56,079 nt of DNA from an uncultured Candidatus Peribacteria bacterium (GTDB lineage Bacteria > Patescibacteriota > Gracilibacteria > RBG-16-42-10). The position numbers and the translations under genes were made by a program. The stretch covers positions 496,001-552,079 of the forward strand of contig CAZERA010000001.1 in assembly GCA_964514565.1 (NCBI GenBank). Direction: 5' to 3'. The notes below the pieces were generated by a model that was given only the letters and a program-made list of their open reading frames with translations, was not told the DNA's origin and ran no database searches. Of the stretch, positions 1 through 16,347 are shown in pieces. Positions within the stretch are counted from its first letter, which is position 1; every line of letters begins with the position of its first letter.

Positions 1-853
1 TAGAGTTTTCTAGATTGACTCCATGAATATATTTGTGAGGTGCTGCTTTTACTAAAGCGTCAAATTGTTTTTGGAGATTCTCGATTGTCGCCCTGTCGCC
101 CAAATCTAATTTAGCCATATAAGCTTCATACTCAGCCTGCGTATATTGTTTGTTGAGAATGCAATATTGCTTGTGTTGTTGATTGACGCAGAGCAGACAG
201 TCTTTGCAATCAATACAATTTTTGAGGAAAAAGCTGTCACGACAGTTGGTACAATCCTCACTAAAGAATAAATGGTAGCAACCAGTGGAAACCATTACTT
301 CATAACAAAGCTCGGAGGTTTGGAGATACGAACACTCCATACAGTTGCGAGAGTGCTTGAGCACATTGCAATAATAAGAGTCTTCGTTGAAATCAGCATC
401 AAAGGTCAAATAGCAGTTTTTGCTGTTGCCGGCGAAGTTGATATACGAACAATTGTTTTCTTCAGCATCGGGAGAAGAGACCAAGGCAGGTAGCGGTACC
501 TTTTTGAGCAACTCATCATATTGATCAAAAAAAGTACGACTAAAATCATAAGCTTGGCCAAACTGACTAGGATCATGGCTGCTATCCCACCAACAAGTCA
601 GACAGTAGACTTGATAAGGTTTGTCAGCGGCATAAATCGAAATAATCTCTTTGTGACAGTGCTGACACTGACGGTGGTAGAGTTTGCGTTCATTACGCCA
701 AGCATGGCGGCGTTGCTTGCGACAATCAGGACAAAGACTGGGAGGAGGGAGAAGCATCTTTTGCGTACCAATAGTTGGCGAAAGATTCTCCAGCTTCTGA
801 ATATCATCAGGTGTAATTTCAAATGAGGTTTTGCAGTGTGCACAAGTAGTCAT
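1..853 (-). CDS. Cys-rich zinc-ribbon/solenoid protein, paralog P1 (3' end outside window; absent from ORF track)
   Basis: Manual translation from ATG at 853: MTTCAHCKTSFEITPDD...LCPDCRKQRRHAWRNERKLYHRQCQHCHKEIISIY...VYCLTCWW...NSKNCYLTFD. The frame is open to the window edge and colinear with the six full-length paralogs. Confidence 0.93.
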   Translation of the reverse strand, partial: MTTCAHCKTSFEITPDDIQKLENLSPTIGTQKMLLPPPSLCPDCRKQRRHAWRNERKLYHRQCQHCHKEIISIYAADKPYQVYCLTCWWDSSHDPSQFGQAYDFSRTFFDQYDELLKKVPLPALVSSPDAEENNCSYINFAGNSKNCYLTFDADFNEDSYYCNVLKHSRNCMECSYLQTSELCYEVMVSTGCYHLFFSEDCTNCRDSFFLKNCIDCKDCLLCVNQQHKQYCILNKQYTQAEYEAYMAKLDLGDRATIENLQKQFDALVKAAPHKYIHGVNLENS

Positions 854-865
854 AGGTCTTTAATT

Positions 866-902
866 AATTTAAAATTTTAAATTGTAAATCTTGAATTTTA
901 AA
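866..902. repeat. AT-rich 7-bp tandem repeat tract
   Basis: aatttaa aatttta aattgta aatcttg aatttta, directly downstream of the P2 stop. Confidence 0.75.
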
Positions 903-2579
903 CTAAGTGGTTAGGTTTAAGTAACACGGCTCGCAGTAAATCTTTTCTGGTCTGTCTGGAGAGTATGTGGTTTGTAAGGCAGTTTGGCATTGGTTACAGT
1001 TTCTGGCATAGAGCTTTCTGCCATTTCTACTATTTACGCGGGATTGGTGGCGGCAGTTGAAGCATCTCTCTGGGGCTGGGATATTGAGGTTTCTGTAATA
1101 ACTTAGTTCTTGCTGAATCAATCGATAGTTTTTGCTACAGCTACTACAAGTTAGGATGTCTTTGGTGATGGTATCGCTAATATCTTTGATCTCTTTGGGT
1201 AAAGTGACCTTGGGGCCTTCATAACGATTGTGGCTAGCAATATCACGCCAAGCTAAGTGGTCATGCTCAATCTGTTCTTTGGACTGAGGATAATATTCTT
1301 GCGCTACTGTTTCGTTGTAGGCAAAAGGGGAGATCGTTGATGGGAAGAATTCACCCCACTCTTTGGTACCGATCATGTGCGTGATAATTTTGGGCACTAA
1401 AATTTCATACTGGTCTTTGGAATATTGTTTATTAAAGATGCAATACTGTTTGTTCCGCAGTCCGACACAGCCGAAACAATCCTGACATGACTGACAAAGA
1501 TCGCAGTAGATCAGACTGGTGCTACGTACCCAACAATTCATACTGAAAAGACAGTGGTAGACATTGGTGGCCACATTGGCTAGTTCATAGCCGAGCTGGC
1601 CATTGGTGCTATAAAAGGTCCAATCATAGGAGTCTTTGCAATCGACAATAAAGGAACTGTATTTACAGTTTTCTGCTTTGGAGATATCAAAACAGTTTTC
1701 TAAATTACGACTGTTTTGAATAAAGTCTCCTGTACAGTTTTCTGAGCTCAAGATATGTACTGCTTGGTGGGGAGATTGTAAGACGAGGGCTTGAAATTCT
1801 TCTTTGTATTGATCGATCTTTTGACAGAAGTTATTCAAGAACTCTGCTTTGAGTGCTTTGAATTCAGCTTCACTGTATTGTTTATTTTTGAAGCAAAAGC
1901 TTTTATTGCGCATGCCCATACACATGATCATGTCATGACAGCCAACACAGTCTTGAATGAAGTAAGAATCATAACAATTTGTCACACTTTTTCCCCAAAG
2001 TACGCGGTAGCATTTATGAGCATCGGCTACTTCGTAGCAAAGTTCACTGTTGTAGGTAAACAAAAAATCGACACAGTCTTTATTACTTAAAGCATAAACT
2101 CCGTAGTAACAATCTTGATTTTCGTCTGCTGTATGAATCAAATAACAATTTTTGTTGTAGCCGGCAAAACTAGTAAAGTCCGAGTTTTCATTTTGCATGG
2201 TATTGAGCGACATGCGTGGCACATCTCGCATGAGCTCTTGAAATTGAACAAAAAAAGGGCGATTGAAATCAAAGTCTCTACCATAGTCTAATGCATCCCA
2301 TTGGTCAGACCACCACAGTGAAGTTTCATATACTTTGGAAGTAGAATCCGGAGCATACAAAGAAATAATTTGTTTCTGGCTCAAATCACAATGACGATTG
2401 TAAAGCTGACGTTCATTGCGAAAACTCATTCGCCGTTGTTCTCGACAAGGAGGACATAGTGTCGGAGTGGGGATAGGGAATTTCTGACCAGCTACGATCG
2501 GACTAACTTTGTCATAAAAGTTTAGATCTTCATCAGTAACAGTGAATTGTTGTTGGCAATGTGGGCAGACTTTGTTCAT
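903..2579 (-). CDS. Cys-rich zinc-ribbon/solenoid protein, paralog P2
   Basis: Start moved to ATG 2579 (MNKVCPHC) by alignment with paralogs. N- and C-terminal CxxC modules, two central Cys/Asn/Ser repeat blocks each ending C.GL.NK.(F/Y)C..NKQYS, and a C-terminal CxxC-x17-CxxC. Confidence 0.92.
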   Translation of the reverse strand: MNKVCPHCQQQFTVTDEDLNFYDKVSPIVAGQKFPIPTPTLCPPCREQRRMSFRNERQLYNRHCDLSQKQIISLYAPDSTSKVYETSLWWSDQWDALDYGRDFDFNRPFFVQFQELMRDVPRMSLNTMQNENSDFTSFAGYNKNCYLIHTADENQDCYYGVYALSNKDCVDFLFTYNSELCYEVADAHKCYRVLWGKSVTNCYDSYFIQDCVGCHDMIMCMGMRNKSFCFKNKQYSEAEFKALKAEFLNNFCQKIDQYKEEFQALVLQSPHQAVHILSSENCTGDFIQNSRNLENCFDISKAENCKYSSFIVDCKDSYDWTFYSTNGQLGYELANVATNVYHCLFSMNCWVRSTSLIYCDLCQSCQDCFGCVGLRNKQYCIFNKQYSKDQYEILVPKIITHMIGTKEWGEFFPSTISPFAYNETVAQEYYPQSKEQIEHDHLAWRDIASHNRYEGPKVTLPKEIKDISDTITKDILTCSSCSKNYRLIQQELSYYRNLNIPAPERCFNCRHQSRVNSRNGRKLYARNCNQCQTALQTTYSPDRPEKIYCEPCYLNLTT

Positions 2580-2688
2580 AGTTTTGTACAATATCGCAAA
2601 GGGATTGTGGCACACGAAAAGAGCAGTTCACGCTTGGCAGATACACATGGTGCTTGCCATAAGGTGAAATTGTTTTCTAACTGTCGAT

Positions 2689-2716
2689 AGTGTAGCAGAT
2701 TGTGAACGAGTGTAAA
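2689..2716 (-). promoter_or_regulatory. sigma70-type promoter for P2
   Basis: Minus strand TTTACA-N16-TACACT with extended TG, implying a ~100-nt leader. Confidence 0.55.
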
Positions 2717-2854
2717 CGCTCTATGCTAATTTGTGGGAGGGTGATCAAGCATTCGATGGCTTAGCTCAATCATAATTACTAGCAGTAAAATCTGTAGAAA
2801 CATTTTTACAACAGGCTGTATTCTGATCAATCTTTGTTTCCAATCACTGATTTT

Positions 2855-2896
2855 AGTTTTAAATTTAAAATCTAGAATTTAAAATTCTAAATTAAC
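2855..2896. repeat. AT-rich 7-bp tandem repeat tract
   Basis: agtttta aatttaa aatctag aatttaa aattcta aattaac, just downstream of the P3 stop. Confidence 0.75.
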
Positions 2897-2908
2897 TTCT
2901 CAGTCTGG

Positions 2909-4564
2909 TTAGTGATTGAGTGACTGGTAGCAGGTTTCACAAAGTACTCGTACTTCCTTGGGGTTGTACACTGTCATGACTGCTTGGTGACACTGAGTGC
3001 ATTGCTGTGGCTTAGCTTCCATGACTGTAAGACTACTTTGAATCTTTTCTAGGCGCGCAATTGGGGAAACTGTGGGAATTGGAATGCCCATTCGGCGATA
3101 AGCTTGGAGCTCTTGTTTGATGATTTTATATTTCTTACCGGTCACCCGACATTTGATGACAGAATCTACAATGTCATCTTTTACGTCCAAAATATTGTCT
3201 GGAATCTGGTAGGTTTGTTCAAAAGGTTCGACTAGATCTTCTTTCCAGGTAAAGCCTAACTCTTGAGCATTTTCTTTGGAGGTTGGAATGAATACTTGTG
3301 CCTCTGAACGGTTGTAATCCATCGGCGCCATTTCGGCCGGAAAGAACTGACCATATTCGCCAGCTATTTTCATTTGGTCTTTTATCTTTGCTACTAAAGC
3401 GAAGTATTCTTCTTTGGAATATTGTTTGTTGAGAATACAATACTGTTTACGTTTGAGGCCGACACAACCAAAACAATCAGTCGAGCCAAAACCGACAAAC
3501 ATGCAGTATTCTAGGTCGCGAATGTTGGTGTAGCAGTCGTAGCAAAACTTGATGTTGTAGGCATTGTCTCCGACAGCTGAACTGTAGTATAGATTTTCAC
3601 CATTTTGACCAAAGCCATCACAGACAAAGGCATTACGAGTTTGATAAATCATTTGAATCGACCACTCGATATTTTCTGCATCAGAAGCAAATAAAGAGTT
3701 GTGGCAGTTCTTGGTATGATTGAGATAATTGCCATCAGCGTTCTCATTACTTTTGCCTTGCATGAAACGGACTGCCGCATTTTTCTTGAGCTTCTGAAAT
3801 GTAGCGCGTTCAGTATCTAAAGTAGTACGGCTACCTAGATCAATAGCAGCGACGCTCTCTTCATATGCTTCTTTGCTCAAAGGTTCGTTGCGGAAATAAT
3901 ATTCTTTGTTGTTTAAATTGCTGCTGCCATAGCAGTGCTTGCAGTTGTGGCAGTCGTATAGGAATGAACTGTCACTACAGTTTGAGCAGTTTTCCCCGTA
4001 GCGCACATTATAACAATTATTGATTTGAATGCAGCCGAAACACAATTCACAATTGGTGGTATAGACTGAGTCAATAATATCTTTGCTGTCGATCACAGTT
4101 CTAGAAAAAAGCACATCTTCGCCATTGATGACACCAAAAGATAAGTAGCAGTTTTTTACATTGAGTACGCCATTGGTGTAGTCGCTATTCTCCATCGTAG
4201 AGCGAATACATTCCAAGCTCGGCAATGGGGCTTTCTTGAGCAGCTCTTCCATCTGTTCAAAAAATGAACGTGCAGGATCATACTTCTGGCCAAAGCTGAG
4301 TGGATCCCAATCGTCGCTCATCCAAGTATCGATGTCATAAACAACTAATCCTTTGTGGGGTGGAATAAAGGTCAAAATATCTTTGCCAGTCAATGCACAT
4401 GTGGTTGGATACAAAAAAATGCTACTCAAGAATGCACAAACCCGTCTGAGTCTTTCCAGTGGAGCTATCGTCGGTAGAGGAATGCCTTGTTCCGCACAAA
4501 AGCTTCCCTCTAGATCGGTAATAGTGAAGTTTTGACCAGTGAGCGTGCAGATTCTTTGCTGCAT
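2909..4564 (-). CDS. Cys-rich protein, paralog P3 (subtype with degenerate Zn sites)
   Basis: 551-aa ORF with the same architecture. Terminal motifs are CTLT, CALT and CRVT, with only the last CTQC/CETC site intact. Most similar to P6. Confidence 0.92.
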   Translation of the reverse strand: MQQRICTLTGQNFTITDLEGSFCAEQGIPLPTIAPLERLRRVCAFLSSIFLYPTTCALTGKDILTFIPPHKGLVVYDIDTWMSDDWDPLSFGQKYDPARSFFEQMEELLKKAPLPSLECIRSTMENSDYTNGVLNVKNCYLSFGVINGEDVLFSRTVIDSKDIIDSVYTTNCELCFGCIQINNCYNVRYGENCSNCSDSSFLYDCHNCKHCYGSSNLNNKEYYFRNEPLSKEAYEESVAAIDLGSRTTLDTERATFQKLKKNAAVRFMQGKSNENADGNYLNHTKNCHNSLFASDAENIEWSIQMIYQTRNAFVCDGFGQNGENLYYSSAVGDNAYNIKFCYDCYTNIRDLEYCMFVGFGSTDCFGCVGLKRKQYCILNKQYSKEEYFALVAKIKDQMKIAGEYGQFFPAEMAPMDYNRSEAQVFIPTSKENAQELGFTWKEDLVEPFEQTYQIPDNILDVKDDIVDSVIKCRVTGKKYKIIKQELQAYRRMGIPIPTVSPIARLEKIQSSLTVMEAKPQQCTQCHQAVMTVYNPKEVRVLCETCYQSLNH

Positions 4565-4576
4565 AGAAAAAACTGA

Positions 4577-4933
4577 TTACTTCTTGAGGTCCCCGATATA
4601 AAAGCTTGCAAGAAGTGTCCGAGTTTCAGGCTGATGAGGTGTACCTTCTCCTGGGCGATCTTCAAATAAAGTAGTAGCGTCTTTGCCACAGCCTTGAGTA
4701 ATCACTGGACCACCTGGATGTTGACCTGCCTTAATGAAATCAGTCACATTGTATACTTTGTCGTGAATCACCATCCAACAATCAGTAGCTTGGTTATGAG
4801 CTGTCACGTCACTCATTGTATATGCTGTACCTGTAGGAGCTGGTGTTACGGTAGTAGTTGGTGTGCTGACTGTAGCTTCTCCACATGCAGTCAGTAGACT
4901 TGCGAAGGTGACGAGTAATGCTAATTTTTTCAT
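4577..4933 (-). CDS. cytochrome b5-like heme/steroid-binding domain lipoprotein
   Basis: Lipobox LLTAC, Thr/Pro linker, then YTMSDVTAHN..DCWMVIHDKVYNVTDF...HPGG.VI...CGKDAT..F...H...YIGDL, the classic cytochrome b5 signature with two His. Confidence 0.92.
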   Translation of the reverse strand: MKKLALLVTFASLLTACGEATVSTPTTTVTPAPTGTAYTMSDVTAHNQATDCWMVIHDKVYNVTDFIKAGQHPGGPVITQGCGKDATTLFEDRPGEGTPHQPETRTLLASFYIGDLKK

Positions 4934-5008
4934 AAAGATGGTTATTAAACAGAGATATCATAGACCTAAATGTACTAGATGTGTAATAAGATTCTGGATA
5001 AACGATAG

Positions 5009-6703
5009 CTAAAGGATTGCTTCAGCGTAACATTTCTCACACAGTACTCTTTCGCTTCGCTCAGGCGCATAAACACTTTGTACAGCTGCCTGACATTGGC
5101 AGCAGTTTCTGGCCCAGAGATGTCTAGGTGGGCGTAGCTTTTGTCTGTCAGTATGTCTTTGGTCAGGATGGCGGTGTGGAATGGGGATACCTTGGCGACG
5201 ATAGTAGGCGAGCTCTGGTTTGATGATGCGAAATAATCTACCTGTGACTTCACAAGCGATAGCAGTATCGAGAATATCATCTGTAACTTGGTTGATGTCA
5301 TCAGTAATTTCTGCTGCTGGGACTACTTGTTTTACAGCTGGCCGAGGCGCTTCGTAATCACTCCAATGAAATCCTTGTGCTAGTGCTTGTTCTTTGGTCA
5401 AAGGGAAAAACTCTTGAGCGACAGTTTCATTGTAGCCAAAAGGCGAGAGCCAAGGAGGAAAGAATTCTGCCCATTCACCCAGTGCTATCATTTGTTCAAT
5501 AATGCGGGGAACAAGCTGTTCGTATTCTTCTTTTGAGTATTGGGTATTGAGGATGCAGTACTCTTTGTGTTTGAGCCCTACACAACCAAACAGATTGCTA
5601 CTGCCTTGCCAACAGAACGCTGAGTGGTAGATATCGTGACTATCGAAACAGGTGTAGTAGTTCCCAATCATTTGCTGACATCCAAGACCAATCATGGCTG
5701 CATTGTATGCTAGTGATGTCGTGTTGCCCCATATGTCGATGTCATAGCAGTCGGTAGCGTCGAGGAGCATGTTGGTACAGAAACGGCAGTCGCGCAGGTC
5801 ATTGCAGTCAAAACAGTCAGCGGTATTTTGGCAATTATTGATATTGTTACCTGTACTGTTCTCATTCATTCTGCCTCTGAATGCTTTTTTAGGTTGCTGG
5901 GCAAAAAATTGTTCTGCTTTTTGTTTGAAATCTTGAAGGTGTTGGTAGCTATTTAGTTGTAGACCTTTGAGAATTTGTTCGTATTCTGATGGTGAGTATG
6001 GTCTGTTAAATATGTAATACTCTTTTTGTTGCAGGTTTGAACAGCCAATACAATGTTTGCAGCCGATACAATCAATCAAGAAAAAAGAGTCACTACAGTT
6101 TTCACTAAAGCGGCTGTATTTGAGGTTGTAGCAATTAGTACAGTTGATGGTTTCGTAGTTGAGTTCACAGCTTTTGATACAGAGAAAGTCTGTACAGTCT
6201 TGGATAGTGTGAAACGTCTCGCCATAAAAAGAATCTTTGCTTTGTTCTCCATCAAAAATCAGGTAGCTATTCACACATTTGAGCACATCATTGGTGTAGT
6301 CACTGTTGATACCGTCTCCCCAGACAATTAAGCCAAGCTTGGGAACGGCTTTCCATAGATCATTCCATTGTTCGAAAAAGGATTTTGAAAAATCATAAGG
6401 TTTACCATAATTGATGGGATCCCAGTTATCATTCCACCAACAGCTATTACAATAAACTAAAGTATCTTTGTTGGGTGAATAGATAGAAATAACTGCTTTC
6501 TGACAGGCAGCACAAGTGCGGTTGTATACTTTTCTTTCATTACGAAAAGCCTGACGGCGTTGTTGGCGACAATCAGGGCAAAGCTTTGGAGCTGCTACTG
6601 GATACTTTTTACCACCAAAAACAGGTGACACTTTGTCGTAGAATGCCAAGTCACGGTCTTCAATGGCAAAGCTTTGCTGACATTTACTACAACTATGATT
6701 CAT
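5009..6703 (-). CDS. Cys-rich protein, paralog P4
   Basis: Start moved to ATG 6703 (MNHSCSKC). Same architecture as P2. Confidence 0.92.
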   Translation of the reverse strand: MNHSCSKCQQSFAIEDRDLAFYDKVSPVFGGKKYPVAAPKLCPDCRQQRRQAFRNERKVYNRTCAACQKAVISIYSPNKDTLVYCNSCWWNDNWDPINYGKPYDFSKSFFEQWNDLWKAVPKLGLIVWGDGINSDYTNDVLKCVNSYLIFDGEQSKDSFYGETFHTIQDCTDFLCIKSCELNYETINCTNCYNLKYSRFSENCSDSFFLIDCIGCKHCIGCSNLQQKEYYIFNRPYSPSEYEQILKGLQLNSYQHLQDFKQKAEQFFAQQPKKAFRGRMNENSTGNNINNCQNTADCFDCNDLRDCRFCTNMLLDATDCYDIDIWGNTTSLAYNAAMIGLGCQQMIGNYYTCFDSHDIYHSAFCWQGSSNLFGCVGLKHKEYCILNTQYSKEEYEQLVPRIIEQMIALGEWAEFFPPWLSPFGYNETVAQEFFPLTKEQALAQGFHWSDYEAPRPAVKQVVPAAEITDDINQVTDDILDTAIACEVTGRLFRIIKPELAYYRRQGIPIPHRHPDQRHTDRQKLRPPRHLWARNCCQCQAAVQSVYAPERSERVLCEKCYAEAIL

Positions 6704-6723
6704 AGCAATAATTACTTGAAACA

Positions 6724-6752
6724 ATAGTAGACAAAGGCCAGACAAATGGAAA
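6724..6752 (-). promoter_or_regulatory. putative sigma70 promoter for P4
   Basis: TTTCCA-N17-TACTAT, with the -10 about 21 bp from the ATG. Confidence 0.4.
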
Positions 6753-6777
6753 GTTCGGTGGACTTAAGTAAACAGCA

Positions 6778-8406
6778 TTAAGCTCTTATTTCTGCTTGAT
6801 AACACTTTGTGCAAAAAATAGTTTCTGGTCGATCTGGTGCATATGGAGAGGCTAGCTCTACTTGGCATTTTTGGCATTGGCGAGGGTAGAGCTTTCTTGG
6901 TAGTAAGCTTGCTACGCGATTTTTTTGTCTACATATGAAGCAATATCTAGGAAGGGTGAGCTGATGGCTTCTATAAAATTCCAGCTCTTGAGCTAAGATT
7001 TTATAGGATTTGGCACATGAGTTACATGCCAAAGGTGATTCAGTAATAGTATCTGAAACATCGTCGATAGCGTCGGGTAGATTGGATCCCTGACTAATAG
7101 GCATGCCAGCTTGATTATCCGGAGATTGCTCGATCTGTATATTAGGAAAGAGACTGATTGAGGTAGGGAAGAATTCACTCCATTCACCAGTTTTTTGCAT
7201 GTGTGCGATCAATTGCGGGACCAAGCTTTCATATGCTTCTTTGCTATATTGTTTGTTGAAAATACAATACTGCTTGCGTCTTAGTCCAATGCAGCCAAAA
7301 CAATTGTTGGAATAAAAACAGTGATCGGAGTAATACATCTCATAACAATTCCAACACGTAGTAGAAAACAACATGCGATAACCAAACCAGCAGTCTTGCA
7401 CTTCGTAGAGCAACTCAGAGTTTTGATAGCCACAGTAGTTGCCATCATACGAATCTTTTAGTTGTCCACCGTCCGAAATATATTTACAGTCCTGAGCCTG
7501 GTTGATGTGATAGCAGTCGTAGCAATTTTTACACCTGTCCAGAAAATCTCCAGTGCAGTCTTCACTATAGCTAATCGTGGCATAGCGATGGGGCAGGGTA
7601 GCAAAGAAATCGTTTACTTTTTGTTTCAGGATTTGAAGGCCTTGGTGTGAGGATTTTTGTAGCAATAAAGCGGCCATTATTTTTTTGTATTCTTCAGCTG
7701 AATAAGCTTGATTGAAAATGTAGTACTGCTTGTGAGCAAGACCAAAGCAGCCAAAACAATCATGGCAGTCATCACAGTAGTAGCAAAAATAGCAGTCACT
7801 AAGTGCATTGGAATATAAACAAAACTGACTATTGTAGGAGGTGAGACAGGCGAGCAGCTCGTAGCTCAACTCACAACTAGCGGACCAGTACATATCTAAA
7901 CAATTGCGGCAGTCATCGATCGAGTCTGAATAGTAGCAGTCTTGATTGCCATCAGCATTGAAAATTAAGTAGCAATTTTTGTTGTGTGAAGCATAGTTAA
8001 TATATTCACTATTTTCAGCATTGCGATTGATGAGCGCTAGTCTCGGCACTGAGGTTCTGAGCTGGGCAAATTGGCTGAAAAATGTTTGCGCAAAGTCATA
8101 GGGGACACCAAAATCGCTAGCATCCCATTTGTCCGACCACCAACACTCTTTGCAATAAACTGGATACTCAGTATCCGTAGGATAAATGGCAATAATCGAC
8201 TTGTGACATAATGAACAAGCTCGATTGTACAAAGAGTAATCATTGCGAGTAGCCAGTCTTCGTTTTTCTCGACAGCTTGGGCAATGAGTCGGAGGTAGTA
8301 CGGCAATTGTTTGTCCGGAAATAGTTGGCGATACCTTTCGATAAAAATCAGTATCGTGCTCAGTAACTTCAAATGATTCTTGGCATTGCAAACAATCGCG
8401 CATCAT
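6778..8406 (-). CDS. Cys-rich protein, paralog P5
   Basis: 542 aa, 42 Cys by hand count, and all eight terminal CxxC pairs intact. Confidence 0.92.
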   Translation of the reverse strand: MMRDCLQCQESFEVTEHDTDFYRKVSPTISGQTIAVLPPTHCPSCREKRRLATRNDYSLYNRACSLCHKSIIAIYPTDTEYPVYCKECWWSDKWDASDFGVPYDFAQTFFSQFAQLRTSVPRLALINRNAENSEYINYASHNKNCYLIFNADGNQDCYYSDSIDDCRNCLDMYWSASCELSYELLACLTSYNSQFCLYSNALSDCYFCYYCDDCHDCFGCFGLAHKQYYIFNQAYSAEEYKKIMAALLLQKSSHQGLQILKQKVNDFFATLPHRYATISYSEDCTGDFLDRCKNCYDCYHINQAQDCKYISDGGQLKDSYDGNYCGYQNSELLYEVQDCWFGYRMLFSTTCWNCYEMYYSDHCFYSNNCFGCIGLRRKQYCIFNKQYSKEAYESLVPQLIAHMQKTGEWSEFFPTSISLFPNIQIEQSPDNQAGMPISQGSNLPDAIDDVSDTITESPLACNSCAKSYKILAQELEFYRSHQLTLPRYCFICRQKNRVASLLPRKLYPRQCQKCQVELASPYAPDRPETIFCTKCYQAEIRA

Positions 8407-8429
8407 ACTGGACAGCTAGAATTACTGGC

Positions 8430-8457
8430 AGTATATGATGCTGCTCGCATAATGCAA
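8430..8457 (-). promoter_or_regulatory. putative sigma70 promoter for P5
   Basis: TTGCAT-N16-TATACT, with the -10 about 24 bp from the ATG. Confidence 0.55.
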
Positions 8458-8489
8458 AGTGACAATACTATTCAACTACCCGTCGACCA

Positions 8490-9860
8490 TTACTCCGCAA
8501 TCGTTATGCGATGGTACAGCTTTTGATTGCGAGTAATGGTCGCAATGTCAGTAACAATCACAACACTGATTGGCCCATATATCCTGGTAGAGTCTCCAGC
8601 AGTATTCGTTTCTCGAGCGCTGACGTGAAAGTCATCACAACGTCCATTGTCAGTCCAACTAATAGTGACTCCTCCTCGATTGGGTATATTGCCAATTACC
8701 CAGTGAGCCCGTCTGATTTGATCTACTATTGGTCTGCGTAAACCGTAAGCTAGGGGGATTGCATCAGCAGGATCTGCTAAGCAGTGACTTAGTTCATTGG
8801 TACGGGCTAAAAGTGCCCTTCGTACAGCCTCTTCTAAAGGTGAGTGTGTTTGGTCTGTAGCTAAGAATGGGCTAGAACTATAAATGAGAGTTGGTAACGA
8901 TCTAGTGGCAACAGGAGATCTCTGTGGTTGTGTTGGTGTAACGATCGGAAGAGTAGGCCGTGGTTGTGGAGTTATAGGATTTACTTGTCTTGTGTTGGTA
9001 CTTGTTTCAGCAGCGATTTGTGTTGCTCTGCGAGTGAAACCAATCCCTGCGCCAATGATAGCAACTGTTCCGAGTACTAATGCTAATAAACCAGCGTCTT
9101 TACGTGCAGGTATAGTTGATAATGTGCTTGGAGCATCTGATTCGGCAGCAATAAATCTACCCAAATCGGTTGGTAGAGCTCCTGGAGATGGCAATGGTCT
9201 TTCCGTGTCAAAAACTGGTTCTAATTGCGCCTCTATTGGCGAAGCTGGGGCTGGGTTGTTGCCCTTTTTCGTAAATCCCCCGGCCTGAGCAATCTCTTGT
9301 CTAACATTTGCTTCTGTTGCCGCATGAATAATTGAAAGACAAGCTGCAATTTGATTGAGCTTGGCACTAATTAAGTCTAAAGGTAACCAATTGTCATTGA
9401 AGTCACCAAGCAAAAGACTGGCATGAAAAGAAAGGCTAGTTGCTACATGATCTGATGGTGATTGCTCTTCAGTAATTTGATCTCTAATAGTGCTTAAAAT
9501 CACCTCAATGAATTTGTGGGGATCTAAGGTCATAATGTGGTTGAATGCCTCTATGGCTAGTTCGCGGTCACCAATTTCATTGATGGTCGTGTCAGGCAAA
9601 GAACGAATGTGGAGTTCAATTGCCTTGATGATATCTCTACAGTATTTTGCTGCTAAGGTCTTTGTCTTCGCTACTTTAGTTTTGATGTCAGAAGCGTCTA
9701 CATCTTGGCTAATTACAGCTAATGTCGCCCCCAAAAAAGCTTGACCTGCTTTTATTGTGTTTAGCACTCCGCGCTTTTCAGCTGTTTTCGTCCTGATTCT
9801 GATATCCAGATCGGTGAAGCTAACAATAGCTGATGTTTCAGTTGGTGAGTCAATAGACAT
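8490..9860 (-). CDS. hypothetical single-pass membrane protein
   Basis: 456-aa ORF: helical N-terminus, hydrophobic segment AGLLALVLGTVAIIGAGIGF, Pro/Thr-rich linker, and a C-terminal domain with two Cys. Confidence 0.75.
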   Translation of the reverse strand: MSIDSPTETSAIVSFTDLDIRIRTKTAEKRGVLNTIKAGQAFLGATLAVISQDVDASDIKTKVAKTKTLAAKYCRDIIKAIELHIRSLPDTTINEIGDRELAIEAFNHIMTLDPHKFIEVILSTIRDQITEEQSPSDHVATSLSFHASLLLGDFNDNWLPLDLISAKLNQIAACLSIIHAATEANVRQEIAQAGGFTKKGNNPAPASPIEAQLEPVFDTERPLPSPGALPTDLGRFIAAESDAPSTLSTIPARKDAGLLALVLGTVAIIGAGIGFTRRATQIAAETSTNTRQVNPITPQPRPTLPIVTPTQPQRSPVATRSLPTLIYSSSPFLATDQTHSPLEEAVRRALLARTNELSHCLADPADAIPLAYGLRRPIVDQIRRAHWVIGNIPNRGGVTISWTDNGRCDDFHVSARETNTAGDSTRIYGPISVVIVTDIATITRNQKLYHRITIAE

Positions 9861-9954
9861 AAGAAAATTGCTTGTTGATCAAAAGAGCTCACAATCTAAA
9901 ACAAACCGAGCATTTTGTCTATGAATGTCGCCAATTGGACAAAGAAAGCTGTTG

Positions 9955-10791
9955 TTACAAGCGTAATCCAAATAATCCCCCTAGGATGATGGCCAAGATA
10001 AACAACACCAATATTACTGGTACTGCAATAACAGCACCCAACATGATTTTGCTAGCAATGCCCGCTTTTCCAGTACTCTCCGATCCAGGTAAGATAGCTT
10101 GAGAATGATCTGCTTTTGTAGTAGGCAATGTGGCTAGTCGTTCTGTTTGAGTGATGCTGATAGTATGTACTATTTTGAGTAACAATATAATGAAAGCAAT
10201 ATAACAAAGACTAGCTACCATATAAAAGAAAGTAGCAATACTGATCAATTGAATATCTTGTGCTGAATTGAGACTAATCGTTGTTGAAGTATGCAAAGTA
10301 ATAGCGATGTAGTAAGCAATTGAACCTGTGATCGCTGATCCCCACCAAGTTTTCACTGTCTGCCAATTGGTAGGATCTACTACCTTTTGCCAGATCTCAC
10401 GCATGTTGATATATGGTCCGCGAAGATTGACGATCGGTACAATACATTCTCCAATTACAGCGCCTGGAGTATTGGCAGTTTCTTGATCCAAAGCATAAAG
10501 ATTGCGATATGCCTGATAGAACCAAACTAGAAAGATCACTACTGCTGCCCAAAACAATGAGTCAAAAAGAGAAGCATTGTGATCATACCAACTAATGATT
10601 GGATTATTGAGCCAATTAAATATGCCCGGATTGTTGTTGAGTAAAGCCCAATTGCCTATGAATACCACTAATGTCACTAAGCATATCTCAGCGATTGCCA
10701 CTACTCCATAAATGCTTAAGAGCATGGATAGGGTTTTGAGGGAAGTGAAGGGGACGTTGAGTTGGAAGTAGGACTTTTTTTGTGGAAGCAT
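9955..10791 (-). CDS. DUF4328-like membrane protein
   Basis: FLVWFYQAYRNL...PGAVIGECIVPIVNLRGPYINMREIW matches the DUF4328 pattern (W..RA..N...AV...F.P..NL..PY....E.W). Several TM helices. Confidence 0.75.
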   Translation of the reverse strand: MLPQKKSYFQLNVPFTSLKTLSMLLSIYGVVAIAEICLVTLVVFIGNWALLNNNPGIFNWLNNPIISWYDHNASLFDSLFWAAVVIFLVWFYQAYRNLYALDQETANTPGAVIGECIVPIVNLRGPYINMREIWQKVVDPTNWQTVKTWWGSAITGSIAYYIAITLHTSTTISLNSAQDIQLISIATFFYMVASLCYIAFIILLLKIVHTISITQTERLATLPTTKADHSQAILPGSESTGKAGIASKIMLGAVIAVPVILVLFILAIILGGLFGLRL

Positions 10792-10798
10792 GGGAATT

Positions 10799-10833
10799 AA
10801 TTAACAATTTACAATTCTCAATTTACAGTTTTT
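10799..10833. repeat. AT-rich 7-bp tandem repeat tract
   Basis: aattaac aatttac aattctc aatttac agttttt, downstream of P6. Confidence 0.7.
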
Positions 10834-10850
10834 TTGAGGGGAGAAGGCTT

Positions 10851-12500
10851 CTATGTTTCGGCTTTTTCGTAGCACTCTTGGCAGAGGACTGGTTGATCTT
10901 TGGGGTTGTGGACGCTTCTGAGTGATTGGTTGCAATTGCTGCACTGAATGTCTTGGAGGGGGAGGATTTTGTTTTGGTAGAGTTTTAATTTGATGCGTTC
11001 TAGTGGCGCTACTTGAGGTAACGGTATTTTGAGTTGTTGGTATGCTTGTAACTCTTGTTTGATGATGCGATAGCGTTTGCCGGATTTGGTACAGATGTAA
11101 ACATTACCAAGCATGCTCTCATCTGCATCTTTGATGTTATCTACCAAAGTAGATGTTGGAGCAGGTGATTCTGGTTTATCTTCTGCCCAGCTGAAACCTC
11201 GCGCCAAGGCTTCTTCTTTGGTCATCGGACAATAGGTCATTCCTTCAGACTCATTGTAGTGACAATAGCTCATCGATGGTGGGAAAAATTGCCCATACTC
11301 TTTGGTCTGGCGCATATGTTCGCGTAGCTTTTCTACCAATGCTAAGTACTCTTCTTTTGAATACTGTTTGTTCAGTATGCAATACTGTTTCTTTTTGAGT
11401 CCAACGCAACCAAAACAGTCACTAGAGCTTGAGGTATAGATACAGTATTCGAGATCACGGACATTGTTCCAAGTATGTAAGCAAAACTTGAGATTGTATG
11501 CATTTTGACCGCAACTCATACAGCGATAAATCAACTCAGCACCATTACCAAATCCGGTAAAATCAATACAGTCTTTGGCTTTGTTGAGCTGTACGCCGTT
11601 TTCGATATCTTGAGAGGTGTTTACGAAATAGCAATCTTGGCAGTTTTGAGTGCTATTGAGCTCATCGCCGGTAGAGTTTTCGTTTTGACTACCGAGCAAA
11701 TATTTAATTGGGAATTGTTTTTTGAAAGCAGCAAATTTTTGTTTCTCAGCTTGGACAGTTTGGTAACTACCCAAATCAATTGTGGCCATCTTGGCTTCAT
11801 AATCTTCTTTGCTGAGCGCCTGATTATAAAAATGATATTCTTTGTTGCGTAAGTTTACACATCCATAGCAGTGCTTGAGTCCGCGACAGTTGTACACAAG
11901 AGCAGAATCTGAACAATTAGCACTTTGCTCACTATGGCGGACATTGTAACAATTGGTGACTTGGTAACAGTCATAACACAATTCACAATCAGTACCCCAG
12001 AGGGTGTCGATCGTGTTTTTACAACGAATTAGTCCTGAAGAGAACATACAATCTTGATCTTCTGAACCAATGATCAATAAGTAACAGTTTTTGACATAGC
12101 CGACTCCATTGCAGTAGTCACTATTCTCAACGCTAGCTTTGTCTACAATCAAGTTTGGGGCAGGGACTGCTTTTTGGAGCTCAGCCATTTGCGCCAAGAA
12201 GGGACGATTCCAATCAATCTCTTTGCCATAGCTCATTGGATCCCAACGATCAGATTGCCATTCATCGATTTCATAGACAGTGAAGCCTTTTTCTGGAGGG
12301 ATACAGCTCAAGATGTTTTTCTTGGTTGCAGCACACTCAGTATTGTACAAAAAGACAGCATTGGAGAAGCTATACATCTGACGCATGCGTTCTTGTGGTG
12401 CTATCTCTGGTAGAGGGATATTGTGTTCTAGACAGTACTTTTCTTCTCGGTCAGATACCTGGAAAGGGTTGCCACTGATACGGCAAATCTTTTGTTGCAT
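10851..12500 (-). CDS. Cys-rich protein, paralog P6 (subtype with degenerate Zn sites)
   Basis: Start moved to ATG 12500 (MQQKICRISG, compare P3 MQQRICTLTG). Motifs CRIS, CAAT and CTKS, with final CSNC/CQEC intact. Confidence 0.92.
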   Translation of the reverse strand: MQQKICRISGNPFQVSDREEKYCLEHNIPLPEIAPQERMRQMYSFSNAVFLYNTECAATKKNILSCIPPEKGFTVYEIDEWQSDRWDPMSYGKEIDWNRPFLAQMAELQKAVPAPNLIVDKASVENSDYCNGVGYVKNCYLLIIGSEDQDCMFSSGLIRCKNTIDTLWGTDCELCYDCYQVTNCYNVRHSEQSANCSDSALVYNCRGLKHCYGCVNLRNKEYHFYNQALSKEDYEAKMATIDLGSYQTVQAEKQKFAAFKKQFPIKYLLGSQNENSTGDELNSTQNCQDCYFVNTSQDIENGVQLNKAKDCIDFTGFGNGAELIYRCMSCGQNAYNLKFCLHTWNNVRDLEYCIYTSSSSDCFGCVGLKKKQYCILNKQYSKEEYLALVEKLREHMRQTKEYGQFFPPSMSYCHYNESEGMTYCPMTKEEALARGFSWAEDKPESPAPTSTLVDNIKDADESMLGNVYICTKSGKRYRIIKQELQAYQQLKIPLPQVAPLERIKLKLYQNKILPLQDIQCSNCNQSLRSVHNPKDQPVLCQECYEKAET

Positions 12501-12522
12501 AAGAACAAGTTTACTTGAGCCG

Positions 12523-12551
12523 ACTATAGGAAAGAGCTGTCTTTTTAGCAA
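12523..12551 (-). promoter_or_regulatory. putative sigma70 promoter for P6
   Basis: TTGCTA-N17-TATAGT, with the -10 about 23 bp from the ATG. Confidence 0.6.
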
Positions 12552-12582
12552 TCTTTCTTGAGTAGTTAAACGGATCTTAACT

Positions 12583-14277
12583 TTAGGCTATAACTAGTTG
12601 ATAACATGTTTCACAGAGTATTTTTTCTGGTCTCTCGGGAGCGTATGAGGTCACTACTTTTTTTTGACATTGATCACATGTTCTCTGCCATAGTTTTCTT
12701 GGAGGTTTAGCCTCTTTTCTTTGTGAATTACGTAAGTCTGGGTGCTTGCGTGGTAAGGGGATATCGTGTGTTCGGTAAAAATTAAGCTCGGGCTTTGTGA
12801 TACGAAATGGTCTCTGTGTAATCGAACACTGAATAGCAACTTGTAAAATATTGTCGTCAACATCAGTAATACTATCGGATAGCTCAGTATTCGTAAGTAT
12901 CGTTTTAACTTGCGGCTGGGGAGCTTTATAAGCTGACCAAGTAAAACCTTTTTCAAGTGCAATAGCTTCACTCAAGGGATAATACTCTTGAGCTACAGTT
13001 TCATTGTAACCAAAGGCAGATAGCTGTGAAGGAAAGAATTCTCCGAATTCACCAGTTTTTTGCATATGCCCGGCTATTTGTGCTGCGAGTATTTCATAAT
13101 CCTCGGCACTATATTGTTTATTGAGGATAGCGTATCTGGCATGATTCTTGAGGCCAGCGCAGCCAAAGATATCGCTACACCCCAAGACACAAAAAGTAGA
13201 ATGATAAATGCGTTGCGCCCCAAATGAGGCATAATAACTAGCTAATATTGCCTGTGCACCTTCACCAATACAAGAGCTATTAAAGACTAAGCTAGTATTG
13301 CTGCCCCATTTATCAACATCTTCACAGTCAGTAGCAGTTTGAATAAGCTGACAACAATAGCGACAATCTTGAATGTCTTTGCAGTCAAAACAATCAAAAC
13401 TATTTTGGCTGTTTACTATATTGTTGCCTGTACAATTCTCAGCTTGATTCCCTCGGTAAGCACGGCGGGGGAACTTTTGAAAGAAATCATTTACCTGAAT
13501 CTTCATGTTTTCTCGCTGCGTGAAATTCTCTAAATGAAATGATTGAATAGTCCTTTCGTATTCTTCTTTGGTATAAGGTTTATTGAAAATAAAGTATTCT
13601 TTTTGGTTTAGATTAATACAGCCAAAGCAATGCTTGAGATTGCTACAATCCATCAAGAAATAACTATCACTACAATTTTGACTAAAAGAACAGTGCTGTA
13701 CGTTGTAGCAATTGAGACAATTGCTGCACTCGTAGCAAAACTGTGATTGTTGTAAACATAGTCCATCAACACAATCATTGTTTGAATTGAAAGTTTCTAA
13801 ATACAAACAATCTTGGGCATTGCCGCCATCGAAACATAAATAGCAGTTTTTTAGCTGGCCGCAGCTATTATTATAATCACTATTTTCTGTTTCAATTAAG
13901 ATAACTCCCAACTTAGGCACGACGTTGAATAGTTCGCGGAATTGGTCGAAAAACGGCTGGTTGGGATTAAAATCTCTACCATAACTGAAAGGATCCCATT
14001 GATCACTCCAATAACAACTGGGACAATAAACTGTAATTGATTTATCTGAGCTATAAATACTGATGATGTCTTTTTGACATAGTGAACATGAGCGCTGATA
14101 CAGATTTCTTTCATTACGAAATGCTAGCCGTCTTTGTTGGCGGCAAGTTGGGCAAAGCGCAGGATCAGAAATAAGATACTTTTTGTGGTTAAAAACAGGT
14201 GAAATTTTATTATAAAAACTGTTGTCCTGCTCATTGAGGGTGAATGTTTGGGTGCAATGGTTACAGGCTTTTTCCAT
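12583..14277 (-). CDS. Cys-rich protein, paralog P7
   Basis: Start moved to ATG 14277 (MEKACNHC). Same architecture, most similar to P4. Confidence 0.92.
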   Translation of the reverse strand: MEKACNHCTQTFTLNEQDNSFYNKISPVFNHKKYLISDPALCPTCRQQRRLAFRNERNLYQRSCSLCQKDIISIYSSDKSITVYCPSCYWSDQWDPFSYGRDFNPNQPFFDQFRELFNVVPKLGVILIETENSDYNNSCGQLKNCYLCFDGGNAQDCLYLETFNSNNDCVDGLCLQQSQFCYECSNCLNCYNVQHCSFSQNCSDSYFLMDCSNLKHCFGCINLNQKEYFIFNKPYTKEEYERTIQSFHLENFTQRENMKIQVNDFFQKFPRRAYRGNQAENCTGNNIVNSQNSFDCFDCKDIQDCRYCCQLIQTATDCEDVDKWGSNTSLVFNSSCIGEGAQAILASYYASFGAQRIYHSTFCVLGCSDIFGCAGLKNHARYAILNKQYSAEDYEILAAQIAGHMQKTGEFGEFFPSQLSAFGYNETVAQEYYPLSEAIALEKGFTWSAYKAPQPQVKTILTNTELSDSITDVDDNILQVAIQCSITQRPFRITKPELNFYRTHDIPLPRKHPDLRNSQRKEAKPPRKLWQRTCDQCQKKVVTSYAPERPEKILCETCYQLVIA

Positions 14278-15387: not shown

Positions 15388-16347
15388 TTATTTCCTAATA
15401 TATTGGTGCGATGTACGCAGAGCATCAAGCTGAGCTTCAACTTCATTTGATCCAGGAAAGGCAATTTCTATTGTTCCTCTTTGTATTTCTTGACGATTAG
15501 GGCCGGACAAGATTGTATTTACTCTAGCAAAGTTAAATCGGCCATTGGTGCGAAATGGATCTTGTAAGGCTACGGTGATCACGCTGCCAGGTGTTAGTTT
15601 GCTTAAATCAGGGACGGCTACTTTTTGGCCACCTGCTGCTAAGAAATCTCGTGGCATTTTTATAACTGAATTGATCAGCGATGCCCCCAGTGGCAATACT
15701 AGATCCATGTAAGTAGCAATTTGGAAACCTGGAGATGCTCTTTCATAGTCAGTCATGACTACGCGCGCCTTTACCGGAACTGACATCCGAATTTCACTTT
15801 GGTCACTGCTGACAAATGCATGATTGTCGTAAATGGCAGTTGTCTTGATACTTCTATCTATCCACTTACCACCAGCAACTGGTTTACCGAGTGGAGTGGC
15901 AACTATAGTGATTGCTCGCCGCTGATTAGTTACCATTTTGATTGTGGCTGTTCCACCTCTGATCTCTTCAGGTTTGAATTGGTCGGCACTTGCTGCCACT
16001 ATTTTTAGTTCAGTTTGAATGAGTTTTCTGAATCTCATTTCTTGAGCAGCAACAAACTCTTCACCTGCTTCAAGTAAAGTTTTTCCTAAGTCTGTCATCG
16101 CAATCAATGCATCGGGTCCATGTATCATCGAATCACTTGGACCACTAAAAAAGAGGCGACTTTCTCCAGTTGCCTTTTGACATACTTGGTCGATATCTAC
16201 ATTTGCAAGTACATCCCTTACTGGATCGCGCACTGTTTCATCAGGCAGATCTGTTTGCAGCGCTATTCTGATAGATTCGAAGTCTTCATGTGCTTGGGCA
16301 ATGAATGGATGTCTGCTAAGAGGTATCGAAGGTTGACCGAAGGCCAT
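15388..16347 (-). CDS. hypothetical protein, possible double hot-dog fold (paralog A)
   Basis: 319 aa with LFFSG....IHGPD.LI.M motif. Colinear with 16407..17354. The fold is inferred. Confidence 0.7.
   Translation of the reverse strand: MAFGQPSIPLSRHPFIAQAHEDFESIRIALQTDLPDETVRDPVRDVLANVDIDQVCQKATGESRLFFSGPSDSMIHGPDALIAMTDLGKTLLEAGEEFVAAQEMRFRKLIQTELKIVAASADQFKPEEIRGGTATIKMVTNQRRAITIVATPLGKPVAGGKWIDRSIKTTAIYDNHAFVSSDQSEIRMSVPVKARVVMTDYERASPGFQIATYMDLVLPLGASLINSVIKMPRDFLAAGGQKVAVPDLSKLTPGSVITVALQDPFRTNGRFNFARVNTILSGPNRQEIQRGTIEIAFPGSNEVEAQLDALRTSHQYIRK

Follow-up and report, generated by a model that had tools for sequence, protein, structure and literature searches.

A cysteine-rich family of predicted solenoid proteins in Patescibacteria and its gene linkage to a TrmB-type regulator and a VirD4-like ATPase

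Introduction

Patescibacteria account for a considerable part of bacterial diversity. Their genomes measure about 1 Mb, and they presumably live on other cells. We analysed 56,079 nucleotides from the genome of an uncultured Candidatus Peribacteria bacterium (C1:496001-552079 of a 1,117,677-base, 7-contig assembly that is 92.7% complete; hereafter the window), the left end of which holds an array of co-oriented genes for cysteine-rich proteins of about 550 amino acids (aa). Each protein consists of a finger pair, a solenoid, helices, a second solenoid, a helix and a second finger pair, and is predicted to be cytoplasmic. Genes for a TrmB-type regulator and a VirD4-like ATPase are linked to this family in genomes that carry it, and from that linkage we tentatively propose that the family may be the diversified client set of an anchor-less VirD4/TraG-type ATPase. 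The first-pass annotation of the window, made from the DNA letters alone, had presumed a reduced genome of the candidate phyla radiation (CPR, or Patescibacteria), as the genome size of 1.118 Mb bears out.

The ends of these proteins have their described counterparts in the stand-alone zf_Tbcl plus zf_Tbcl_2 proteins (PF13451 and PF23477, the latter matching TIGR04272, 'CxxC-x17-CxxC'), which are bacterial and 91-130 aa long, and on whose Pfam families we found no paper in the literature. The two share the order of the fingers, the CxxC...CxxC ligand spacing and a basic linker, whereas the family doubles the module around some 360 residues of solenoid and helices and has lost many of the finger ligands. 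The centre recalls TmAFP of Tenebrio molitor (1EZG), a right-handed beta-helix whose coil points residues C2, S5, C8 and A11 inwards and is held by C2-C8 disulfides (PMC8038014, in the part available to us). Both have a 12-residue coil with small inward residues at positions 2, 5, 8 and 11, cysteine being the commonest. The disulfides are obligate in TmAFP, whereas by sequence statistics the cysteines at i and i+6 in the family are anti-correlated; the family also lacks the Thr-Cys-Thr (Thr-x-Thr) ice-binding face and the signal peptide, shows no sequence similarity to TmAFP and superposes on it with a root-mean-square deviation (rmsd) of 8.5 Å over 82 residues. The resemblance is one of geometry only, and not of membership. 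Pentapeptide-repeat and hexapeptide-repeat (left-handed beta-helix, LbH) proteins are likewise acidic beta-solenoids, the LbH proteins giving weaker structural matches (Z 3.0-4.9), but the family has a period of 12 with a 3-residue sublattice rather than a period of 5 or 6, and has no Pfam match to either.

The linked ATPase resembles the type IV coupling proteins (VirD4, TrwB, TraD, Cagbeta) in that it passes the Pfam models PF02534 and PF12696 and matches TrwB and Cagbeta, and in that one ATPase gene is linked to many genes with conserved end modules. It differs in its soluble 330-residue N-terminal domain, in the lack of an anchor and in a best whole-length match to VirB4; channel genes are found neither nearby nor at threshold, and no known substrate family has the architecture of the family described here. 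According to the part of a 2025 survey available to us (PMC12102498), 2,918 Patescibacteria genomes hold 5,713 VirD4-type genes, just 148 of them near virB4. The same part of that source describes Patescibacteria homologues of type IV channel genes as divergent, reports that the VirD4-type homologue of one cultivated strain is not essential for epibiotic growth, and has its authors conclude that exaptation 'cannot be ruled out'.

Large cysteine-rich proteins have been described from Peribacteria, a related lineage, where their genes are clustered as well; in the part of that description available to us (PMC4736985) they average 1,655 aa, mostly carry signal peptides and are predicted to be extracellular. 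By that account the present family, with about 550 aa and no signal peptide, is a different one. A preprint on CPR protein families (10.1101/335083) has CAP-domain proteins only under 'cysteine-rich'. The literature, leaving aside the supplements of PMC12102498 and PMC4736985, which could list the genes, yielded no description of the family. Taken singly, its parts are familiar (treble-clef fingers, a beta-solenoid, a type IV-type ATPase); the way in which they are combined, and the gene unit, are undescribed.

Results and discussion

The array and the copies in the genome

Our check of the open reading frames (ORFs) reproduced the seven co-oriented genes that had been noted at the left end of the window, all of them on the minus strand:

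2..853, minus: P1 (copy a4), N-terminal 284 aa; the full gene is C1:495171-496853, 560 aa, with four zinc fingers present
903..2579, minus: P2 (a5), 558 aa from ATG; finger A2 degenerate (CSEL)
2909..4564, minus: P3 (a6), 551 aa; finger A'2 alone intact
5009..6703, minus: P4 (a7), 564 aa from ATG; finger A'1 degenerate; 71% ortholog in the same-genus genome G301
6778..8406, minus: P5 (a8), 542 aa, of which 42 are Cys; four fingers intact; the copy used for the structure model
10851..12500, minus: P6 (a9), 549 aa from ATG; finger A'2 alone intact; 81% ortholog in G301
12583..14277, minus: P7 (a10), 564 aa from ATG; finger A'1 degenerate

The annotation's count of 42 cysteines in the 542 aa of P5 was exact, and its surmise that the array runs on to the left was correct, there being 10 co-oriented copies at C1:489238-510394. 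A genome profile search added five dispersed copies (two on C3 and one each on C1, at 612 kb, C4 and C6), for a genome total of 15, every one an open full-length frame. P2 is 33-43% identical to the other window copies in full-length alignment. One dispersed copy, d2 (C3:19068-20609), matches profile positions 1-516 only, as do forms of about 515 aa in the genomes G301, G304 and G305; these appear to be a shorter subfamily without the last, otherwise near-universal finger.

The window copies lack a signal peptide or transmembrane helix, as had been noted, with no 19-residue window reaching a Kyte-Doolittle value of 1.6. Among the 280 family proteins that we aligned, which also underlie the covariation and finger counts below, 6 exceed 1.6, the own copies d4 and d5 included; the hydrophobic stretch of these two lies inside an N-terminal extension produced by earliest-start ORF calling. 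The family takes up about 2% of this genome and about 8% of that of a relative, G314 (arithmetic on rounded sizes). Its cysteine content is 6.9%, as compared with 0.99% for ORFs of at least 200 aa; of the 3014 cysteines in such ORFs, 547 (18%) belong to the 15 copies.

Linkage to a TrmB-type regulator and a VirD4-like ATPase

We described the neighbourhood of the family from 71 of its loci in species-representative genomes (66 assemblies), taken with flanking DNA of up to 10 kb and amounting together to 1.11 Mb; their 823 non-family ORFs were all clustered, without preselection. TrmB-like genes recurred in 26 loci and VirD4-like genes in 20, the next cluster in only 6. A family gene lay within 500 bp of 26 of the 37 TrmB-like genes, and of these 26, 25 were on the opposite strand and 21 divergent; the same distance held for 16 of the 25 VirD4-like genes, 15 of the 16 being on the same strand as the family gene. 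The gene order F>F>F>V> (F, family gene; V, VirD4-like gene) recurs, with V>F>F>V> in one subgroup. Measured by one profile criterion, the density of VirD4-like genes is 20.7 per Mb in family loci, 2.7 in the own genome, a 7.7-fold difference, and 0 in control loci (196 kb); the corresponding values for TrmB-like genes are 36.9, 5.4 and 0. Both genes are thus linked to the family in the genomes. Those in and next to the window are:

35283..37544, plus: soluble type IV secretion system-type (T4SS-type) ATPase (VirD4/TraG-like), 753 aa; its orthologs in other genomes lie directly after family genes on the same strand
C1:490951-491757, plus: TrmB-type helix-turn-helix (HTH) gene lying between a1 and a2, beyond the left end of the window, on the opposite strand to the array
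45564-46337, minus: a further TrmB-type HTH gene in the window

When the arrays of the own genome and four relatives were compared, the TrmB-type gene was the only neighbour present in all five. The own genome has six TrmB-like genes, a number of regulators unusually high for 1.1 Mb. Three of them adjoin family genes divergently at 0-114 bp, across a 45-bp intergenic region in the case of C1:490951-491757 and at C4:34067/34068 and C3:103239-103353 in the other two. Pfam matches nothing in the C-terminal two thirds of the array-linked TrmB-type protein. In the window the linkage is loosened, as the ATPase gene stands 20.9 kb off, but in the genome the three TrmB-type genes just named still adjoin family genes divergently.

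The ATPase passes two Pfam models, PF02534 (T4SS-DNA_transf; 29.6 bits, cut-off 20.1) and PF12696 (TraG-D_C; 23.7 bits, cut-off 22), and its P-loop residues G345, G348, G350, K351 and S352 are invariant in 16 sequences. No N-terminal membrane anchor was found, no 19-residue window having a mean hydropathy above 1.6. Residues 1-330 (35283-36272, plus strand) have no Pfam match and form a soluble mixed alpha/beta domain in the model of the protein (predicted local distance difference test, pLDDT, 73.6; predicted template modelling score, pTM, 0.55). In the PADLOC-DB 2.0 collection the ATPase matches generic HerA/mad8 P-loop models only. The model gave these Foldseek matches:

TrwK/VirB4: E 1e-17, over the whole length with TM 0.30 and rmsd about 17 Å
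TrwB: E 4e-12, TMt 0.53
HerA: E 3e-12
Cagbeta: E 4e-11

Of 301 Patescibacteria genomes sampled, 299 have the N-domain, mostly in 2-5 copies; it looks to be a signature of the whole phylum, in place of the membrane anchor that is usual. Among same-class genomes, all 7 with the full-length family have close orthologs of the window ATPase (N-domain E <= 2.5e-48), and none of the 9 that lack the family does (best value 3.5e-21), a phyletic contrast that is supportive and not a formal test.

Architecture and end modules

The A-B-B'-A' plan that had been proposed for these proteins, with similar end modules and a repeated centre, was confirmed by profile-profile comparison, in which A and A' match at 99.85% (E 1.3e-30) and B and B' at 99.94% (E 1.8e-36), as against 0.3% for a control comparison of A with B. 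The parts are laid out as follows in P5:

8122..8406, minus: module A, residues 1-95, two treble-clef-type CxxC...CxxC fingers
7699..8034, minus: block B, residues 125-236, a beta-solenoid whose 12-residue coils carry Cys, Ser or small residues at repeat positions 2/5/8/11
7243..7590, minus: block B', residues 273-388, a second solenoid, homologous to B and less regular
7147..7242, minus: residues 389-420, a helix followed by the motif TGEWGEFFP, conserved more than any other segment in the family (mean entropy 1.35)
6781..7035, minus: module A', residues 458-542, a basic double finger, the second finger of which is present in 273 of 280 members

The motifs noted earlier are present in the alignment, where those that close the blocks read CFGCxxLRNKxYxIFNxxYSKEEY and CFGCxGLxxKxYCILNKQYSKEEY.

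The end modules do not reach the Pfam cut-offs (24 and 27 bits), PF13451 scoring at most 21.2 (P2) and PF23477 at most 19.0 (P4); P3 matches neither, and TIGR04272 stays at or below 16 bits against a cut-off of 36. Small ORFs that match profile positions 450-556 only are found in many Patescibacteria genomes without the full protein. All 20 such stand-alone proteins (91-130 aa) match the family profile, with E from 3e-11 to 2e-17, and the two that we scanned against PF13451 and PF23477 scored above cut-off, at 85/54 and 65/60 bits. Because the stand-alone proteins match both the family profile and Pfam, A and A' can be regarded as divergent copies of the PF13451+PF23477 two-finger unit. The stand-alone gene has a conserved, housekeeping neighbourhood: 8 of 20 loci place it near holB (DNA polymerase III delta'), PSP1-domain, M50 peptidase and tetratricopeptide-repeat (TPR) genes. 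Among the matches listed, inspection by eye of 19 genomes found none with a stand-alone finger gene within 40 kb of a VirD4-like gene on one contig, a weak negative.

The cysteines of the fingers are kept or lost as sets. C67, C85 and C88 are all present in 110 sequences and all absent in 165-169 (phi 0.96-0.99), and C464 and C492 covary with phi 0.96. Since the ligand cysteines behave in this all-or-none manner, the end modules are predicted to bind zinc through Cys4 sites. The earlier suggestion of zinc-binding ends is upheld by this pattern; the fold assigned to them is not, for by Pfam they are treble-clef fingers and not classical zinc ribbons. Intact CCCC sites number 242 of 280 for A1, 110 for A2, 125 for A'1 and 273 for A'2. 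Of the own 15 copies, five keep four fingers, three (P3, P6 and one dispersed copy) keep the last finger only, and one keeps none. Charge is unevenly distributed: the last 85 aa carry a net +6.5 +/- 2.5 and the first 95 aa +2.8, a helix between the two fingers being rich in Arg and Lys, the middle carries -15.4 +/- 5.6, and the whole protein is acidic (net -8 to -14).

The central solenoid

The centre of the proteins matches nothing in Pfam or NCBIfam. An AlphaFold2 model of P5 from a 65-row alignment has a mean pLDDT of 83.7 and a pTM of 0.84, with block B at a pLDDT of 60-73. A Foldseek search of this model against the PDB returned nothing at E <= 0.001, the best match being a tandem zinc finger at E 1.2. 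A structure search independent of Foldseek matched residues 125-225 to beta-solenoids:

phi29 gp12 (3gq7): Z 6.3, rmsd 3.2 Å, 101 residues aligned
TmAFP (1ezg): Z 6.2, rmsd 8.5 Å, 82 residues aligned
ryegrass ice-binding protein (3ult): Z 5.8, rmsd 2.6 Å, 94 residues aligned

In the same search YadA-like heads reached Z 4.7-5.7 and LbH enzymes Z 3.0-4.9. As these values lie in a range that the search tool grades as common, our claim is limited to a generic solenoid. Column entropy in block B is autocorrelated at lag 12 (0.60) and lag 24 (0.38), and residues 132-227 form 8 coils of 12 in perfect register. Cysteine occurs at repeat positions 2/5/8/11 with frequencies of 0.66/0.38/0.30/0.45, and at the other eight with a frequency of 0.01 or less. 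The register and the structural matches agree with the beta-solenoid bearing a cysteine ladder that had been predicted, and show it to be a narrow one.

An examination of variability by column, which the annotation had proposed, found each 12-residue coil to be half conserved and half variable: entropy is low at positions 12 and 1-4, a conserved face that reads N/D-C-Y/F-L/Y in the consensus, and rises at positions 6, 7, 9 and 10, where it is high. This division fits a diversified binder.

The solenoid cysteines show none of the pairing seen in the fingers. No two are positively coupled beyond a phi of 0.31, and those at i and i+6 are anti-correlated (phi -0.29 to -0.46). Lattice positions hold Cys in 48% of cases, Ser in 18%, Leu in 8%, Val in 5%, Ile in 4% and Gly in 4%. 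Each block has CxxCxxCxxC runs in its last coil, and cysteine is replaced even in this best-conserved coil, the five last-coil positions of block B showing 51 residue patterns, among them LCCCC, CCCCC, LCCCS and SLCCC. Being unpaired and exchanged with Ser, Leu and Val, the solenoid cysteines look like core packing, on statistical grounds, rather than disulfide partners or metal ligands. On covariation we reject disulfide or metal pairing among them (maximum phi 0.31, with free exchange). The fold is of interest as a predicted cytoplasmic beta-helix of 12-residue coils, with a core of free Cys and Ser instead of disulfides.

Sequence searches of the PDB with the family profile returned only LIM-type matches on the last finger (E 0.06-0.25), and with block B alone no match at E <= 10. 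From the ESM Atlas came unnamed Patescibacteria clusters only, at 0.94-0.95 for the whole protein and at most 0.84 for the core. PADLOC-DB 2.0 gave no family for P2, P3, P4 or P5 at E <= 0.01. The first-pass annotation knew of no function for such proteins, and the family is indeed uncharacterised, no named relative of its core having turned up in Pfam or NCBIfam, in the PDB, in PADLOC or in the ESM Atlas.

Family size, distribution and selection

A word-indexed search found 4157 matches at E <= 0.001 among 6289 candidates; named matches were labelled Abawacabacteria, Gracilibacteria, Peregrinibacteria or Patescibacteria, and were called 'hypothetical' or 'zinc-ribbon domain containing'. An exhaustive search of representatives at 50% identity found 3527 at E <= 0.001, 2549 at E <= 1e-10 and 1363 at E <= 1e-30, so that the family comprises at least 1363 clusters at 50% identity. 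It is among the largest gene investments of Patescibacteria, yet unnamed and with a core that has no Pfam model. Members also stand on contigs labelled Gammaproteobacteria, Woesearchaeota archaeon and Bdellovibrionales (L039, L076 and L102), which are probably mis-binned or mislabelled Patescibacteria, lateral transfer being the alternative.

We sampled 300 other genomes of the phylum, evenly drawn and including one unpublished genome (G154), which also entered the N-domain tally and bears no individual claim, and counted as full-length any copy at E <= 1e-160. Some match was found in 117 genomes, full-length copies in 14 and fragments in one more; among same-class genomes, 7 of 16 had full-length copies. 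Copy numbers in five relatives, at E <= 1e-30 and with some matches being pieces at contig ends, were as follows:

G314: 50 matches, about 0.9 Mb
G304: 39 matches, about 1.2 Mb
G119: 26 matches, about 0.9 Mb
G301 (same genus): 21 matches, about 1.3 Mb
G305: 18 matches, about 1.1 Mb

In a tree of the 280 proteins, 11 of the own 15 copies are closer to foreign proteins than to any sibling; the foreign set consists of matches to P5, and relatives of the remaining four may be undersampled. Synonymous differences (pS) are saturated even within the genus, and we therefore give them beside nonsynonymous differences (pN) in place of dN/dS. The six syntenic ortholog pairs with G301 have pN 0.115-0.25 and pS 0.79-0.84, and over all pairs the ranges are 0.115-0.41 and 0.79-0.89. 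With pN well below saturated pS, the copies are clearly under purifying selection, and the description of them as intact rather than decaying was right. Copies have also been gained and lost, since P5 has no close ortholog in G301 (best 43%) yet has close orthologs at 64% in another genus and 80% elsewhere.

A search for longer forms found no fused form that links the family to another domain. Its single match, P0268 (1,114 aa, 99% query coverage), looks like two tandem copies read as one, by fusion or a lost stop; the extra part of P0250 (808 aa) has no Pfam domain.

A possible client set and its alternatives

If the family serves the linked ATPase, the regulated unit would comprise a divergent TrmB-type regulator, a run of family genes and a co-directional gene for a VirD4/TraG-type hexameric ATPase. 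The conserved ends, together with the helix and TGEWGEFFP segment, would be a common handle, and the variable half of the coils a diversified binding surface. Many clients would share one ATPase, the family proteins being cargo or cargo-presenting modules that it would recognise by the handle and then move, unfold or pass on, while the TrmB-type protein would switch the array on and off. We regard this as the best of the readings considered, quite possible and somewhat short of probable; one ortholog group of the Patescibacteria VirD4-type ATPases would with it gain a specific candidate partner family and regulator.

Several observations weigh against such a role. No VirD4-like gene stands in the flanks of 51 of the 71 loci, many of which end at contig ends, and the ATPase gene of the window lies 20.9 kb from the array on the other strand. 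Of the own genome's three ATPase genes, the other two lie 5.9 kb from a dispersed copy and on a contig without any copy, and by a rough estimate for this genome alone, chance would bring two of three so near a family locus (21 kb or less) with a probability of about 0.15, which by itself is not significant. The N-domain is found in nearly every genome (299 of 301) and the full-length family in 14 of 300, so that most such ATPases work without the family. The line that separates 7/7 from 0/9 genomes was drawn after the data had been seen, and the genomes are kin. At the Pfam threshold the genome, at 92.7% completeness, contains no VirB4 or channel component: PF03135 has no match, and PF12846 has sub-threshold matches only (at most 23.1 against 27.5 bits), in ORFs of 689 and 745 aa distant from the arrays. 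Putative effector sets usually differ in fold, and here all proteins share one; the paralogs, moreover, are old and conserved and not fast-evolving.

A bolder version of the client hypothesis would see in the arrays the genes for the clients so far missing for the 'orphan' VirD4-type ATPases in this phylum, namely a repertoire of solenoid rods, rigid, strongly acidic and possibly DNA-like, with basic zinc-finger handles, that the exapted motor would deliver to the host cell or to a cell-surface machine. We consider this very doubtful. It would amount, if true, to an undescribed protein-delivery system specific to ultra-small episymbiotic bacteria and under its own TrmB-type regulator.

Among other explanations, the proteins might be stationary binders of nucleic acid, whose basic double fingers would grip DNA or RNA at a distance set by the solenoid and whose paralogs would differ in targets or partners; the ATPase, from a clade that includes DNA translocases, would then act on nucleic acid too, for example in the uptake or processing of foreign DNA. 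The basic finger modules with their Arg/Lys-rich helix speak for this, as do the matches of the ATPase to HerA (with dsDNA) and TrwB and, in 8 of 20 loci, the proximity of the stand-alone finger gene to holB and to a gene with a PSP1 domain. However, no nucleic-acid-binding family was matched at threshold in the Pfam, NCBIfam and PDB searches, the proteins as a whole are acidic, and many members have lost two or three fingers and kept their solenoids, which suggests that the fingers are not the core of the function; we judge this explanation unlikely. Distinctly unlikely, in our view, is that the proteins are strictly cargo, exported along a type IV-like route to the inside or the surface of the host of this presumably episymbiotic bacterium, where the variable solenoid face would bind host targets. 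Some type IV substrates have conserved or positively charged C-terminal recognition parts, and the basic C-terminal module is kept in nearly all members, which lack a signal peptide, number 15-50 genes per cognate ATPase and recur in the co-directional order F>F>F>V>; yet the ATPase lacks a membrane anchor, neither VirB4 nor a channel gene reaches threshold in the genome, zinc-stabilised fingers and a rigid solenoid would be poor substrates for threading, and the orthologs show purifying selection and no arms-race pattern.

The proteins could also form a self-assembling polymer or scaffold of stacked solenoids, with paralogs as interchangeable subunits and the ATPase as assembly or disassembly factor. 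Where their ends are exposed, beta-solenoids are apt to stack, much of the genome is given over to the family (about 2% here and about 8% in G314), and the conserved coil half could be a packing face, but other domains cap both ends of the solenoids in the model (pTM 0.84), and we take a polymer to be very unlikely. Most improbable of all is the role that the first-pass annotation had put forward in part, in which the solenoid cysteine ladders act as ligands or thiols of metal or redox sensors or buffers. The high cysteine content and the CxxCxxCxxC runs of the last coils would suit it; against it, the solenoid cysteines lack the all-or-none pattern that the finger ligands show in the same alignment (phi 0.96-0.99, as opposed to a maximum of 0.31), are anti-correlated at i and i+6, and fill 48% of a lattice that they share with Ser, Leu, Val, Ile and Gly. 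From the proposal of diversified cytoplasmic ligand, metal or redox sensors or binders, the binder survives, as it fits the variable coil half, and metal or redox sensing by the solenoid does not.

Other genes in the window

Within the window, three genes without family membership lie inside the array, and further ORFs lie beyond it:

4577-4933, minus: cytochrome b5-like haem-binding domain, 118 aa (PF00173, E 2e-19), with a lipoprotein-type N-terminus; inside the array
8490-9860, minus: 456-aa ORF inside the array, without a family match and with a Pro/Thr-rich middle; its only relative, in G301, is 42% identical over part
9955..10791, minus: DUF4328 membrane protein inside the array
15388-16347 and 16407-17354, minus: adjacent paralogous ORFs of 319 and 315 aa, without Pfam matches and 35-36% identical to one ORF beside the G301 array
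28417-31503 and 50519-53146, minus: two large ORFs of 1028 and 875 aa, without a Pfam match at E <= 0.01

In so small a genome (1.1 Mb) an exported b5 domain strikes us as odd. Among the four relatives compared, G301 alone shares the cytochrome b5 lipoprotein, the 456-aa ORF and a SecDF-head-like gene as neighbours of the family. The DUF4328 gene recurs within arrays in 3 of 5 genomes and is a candidate member of the unit.

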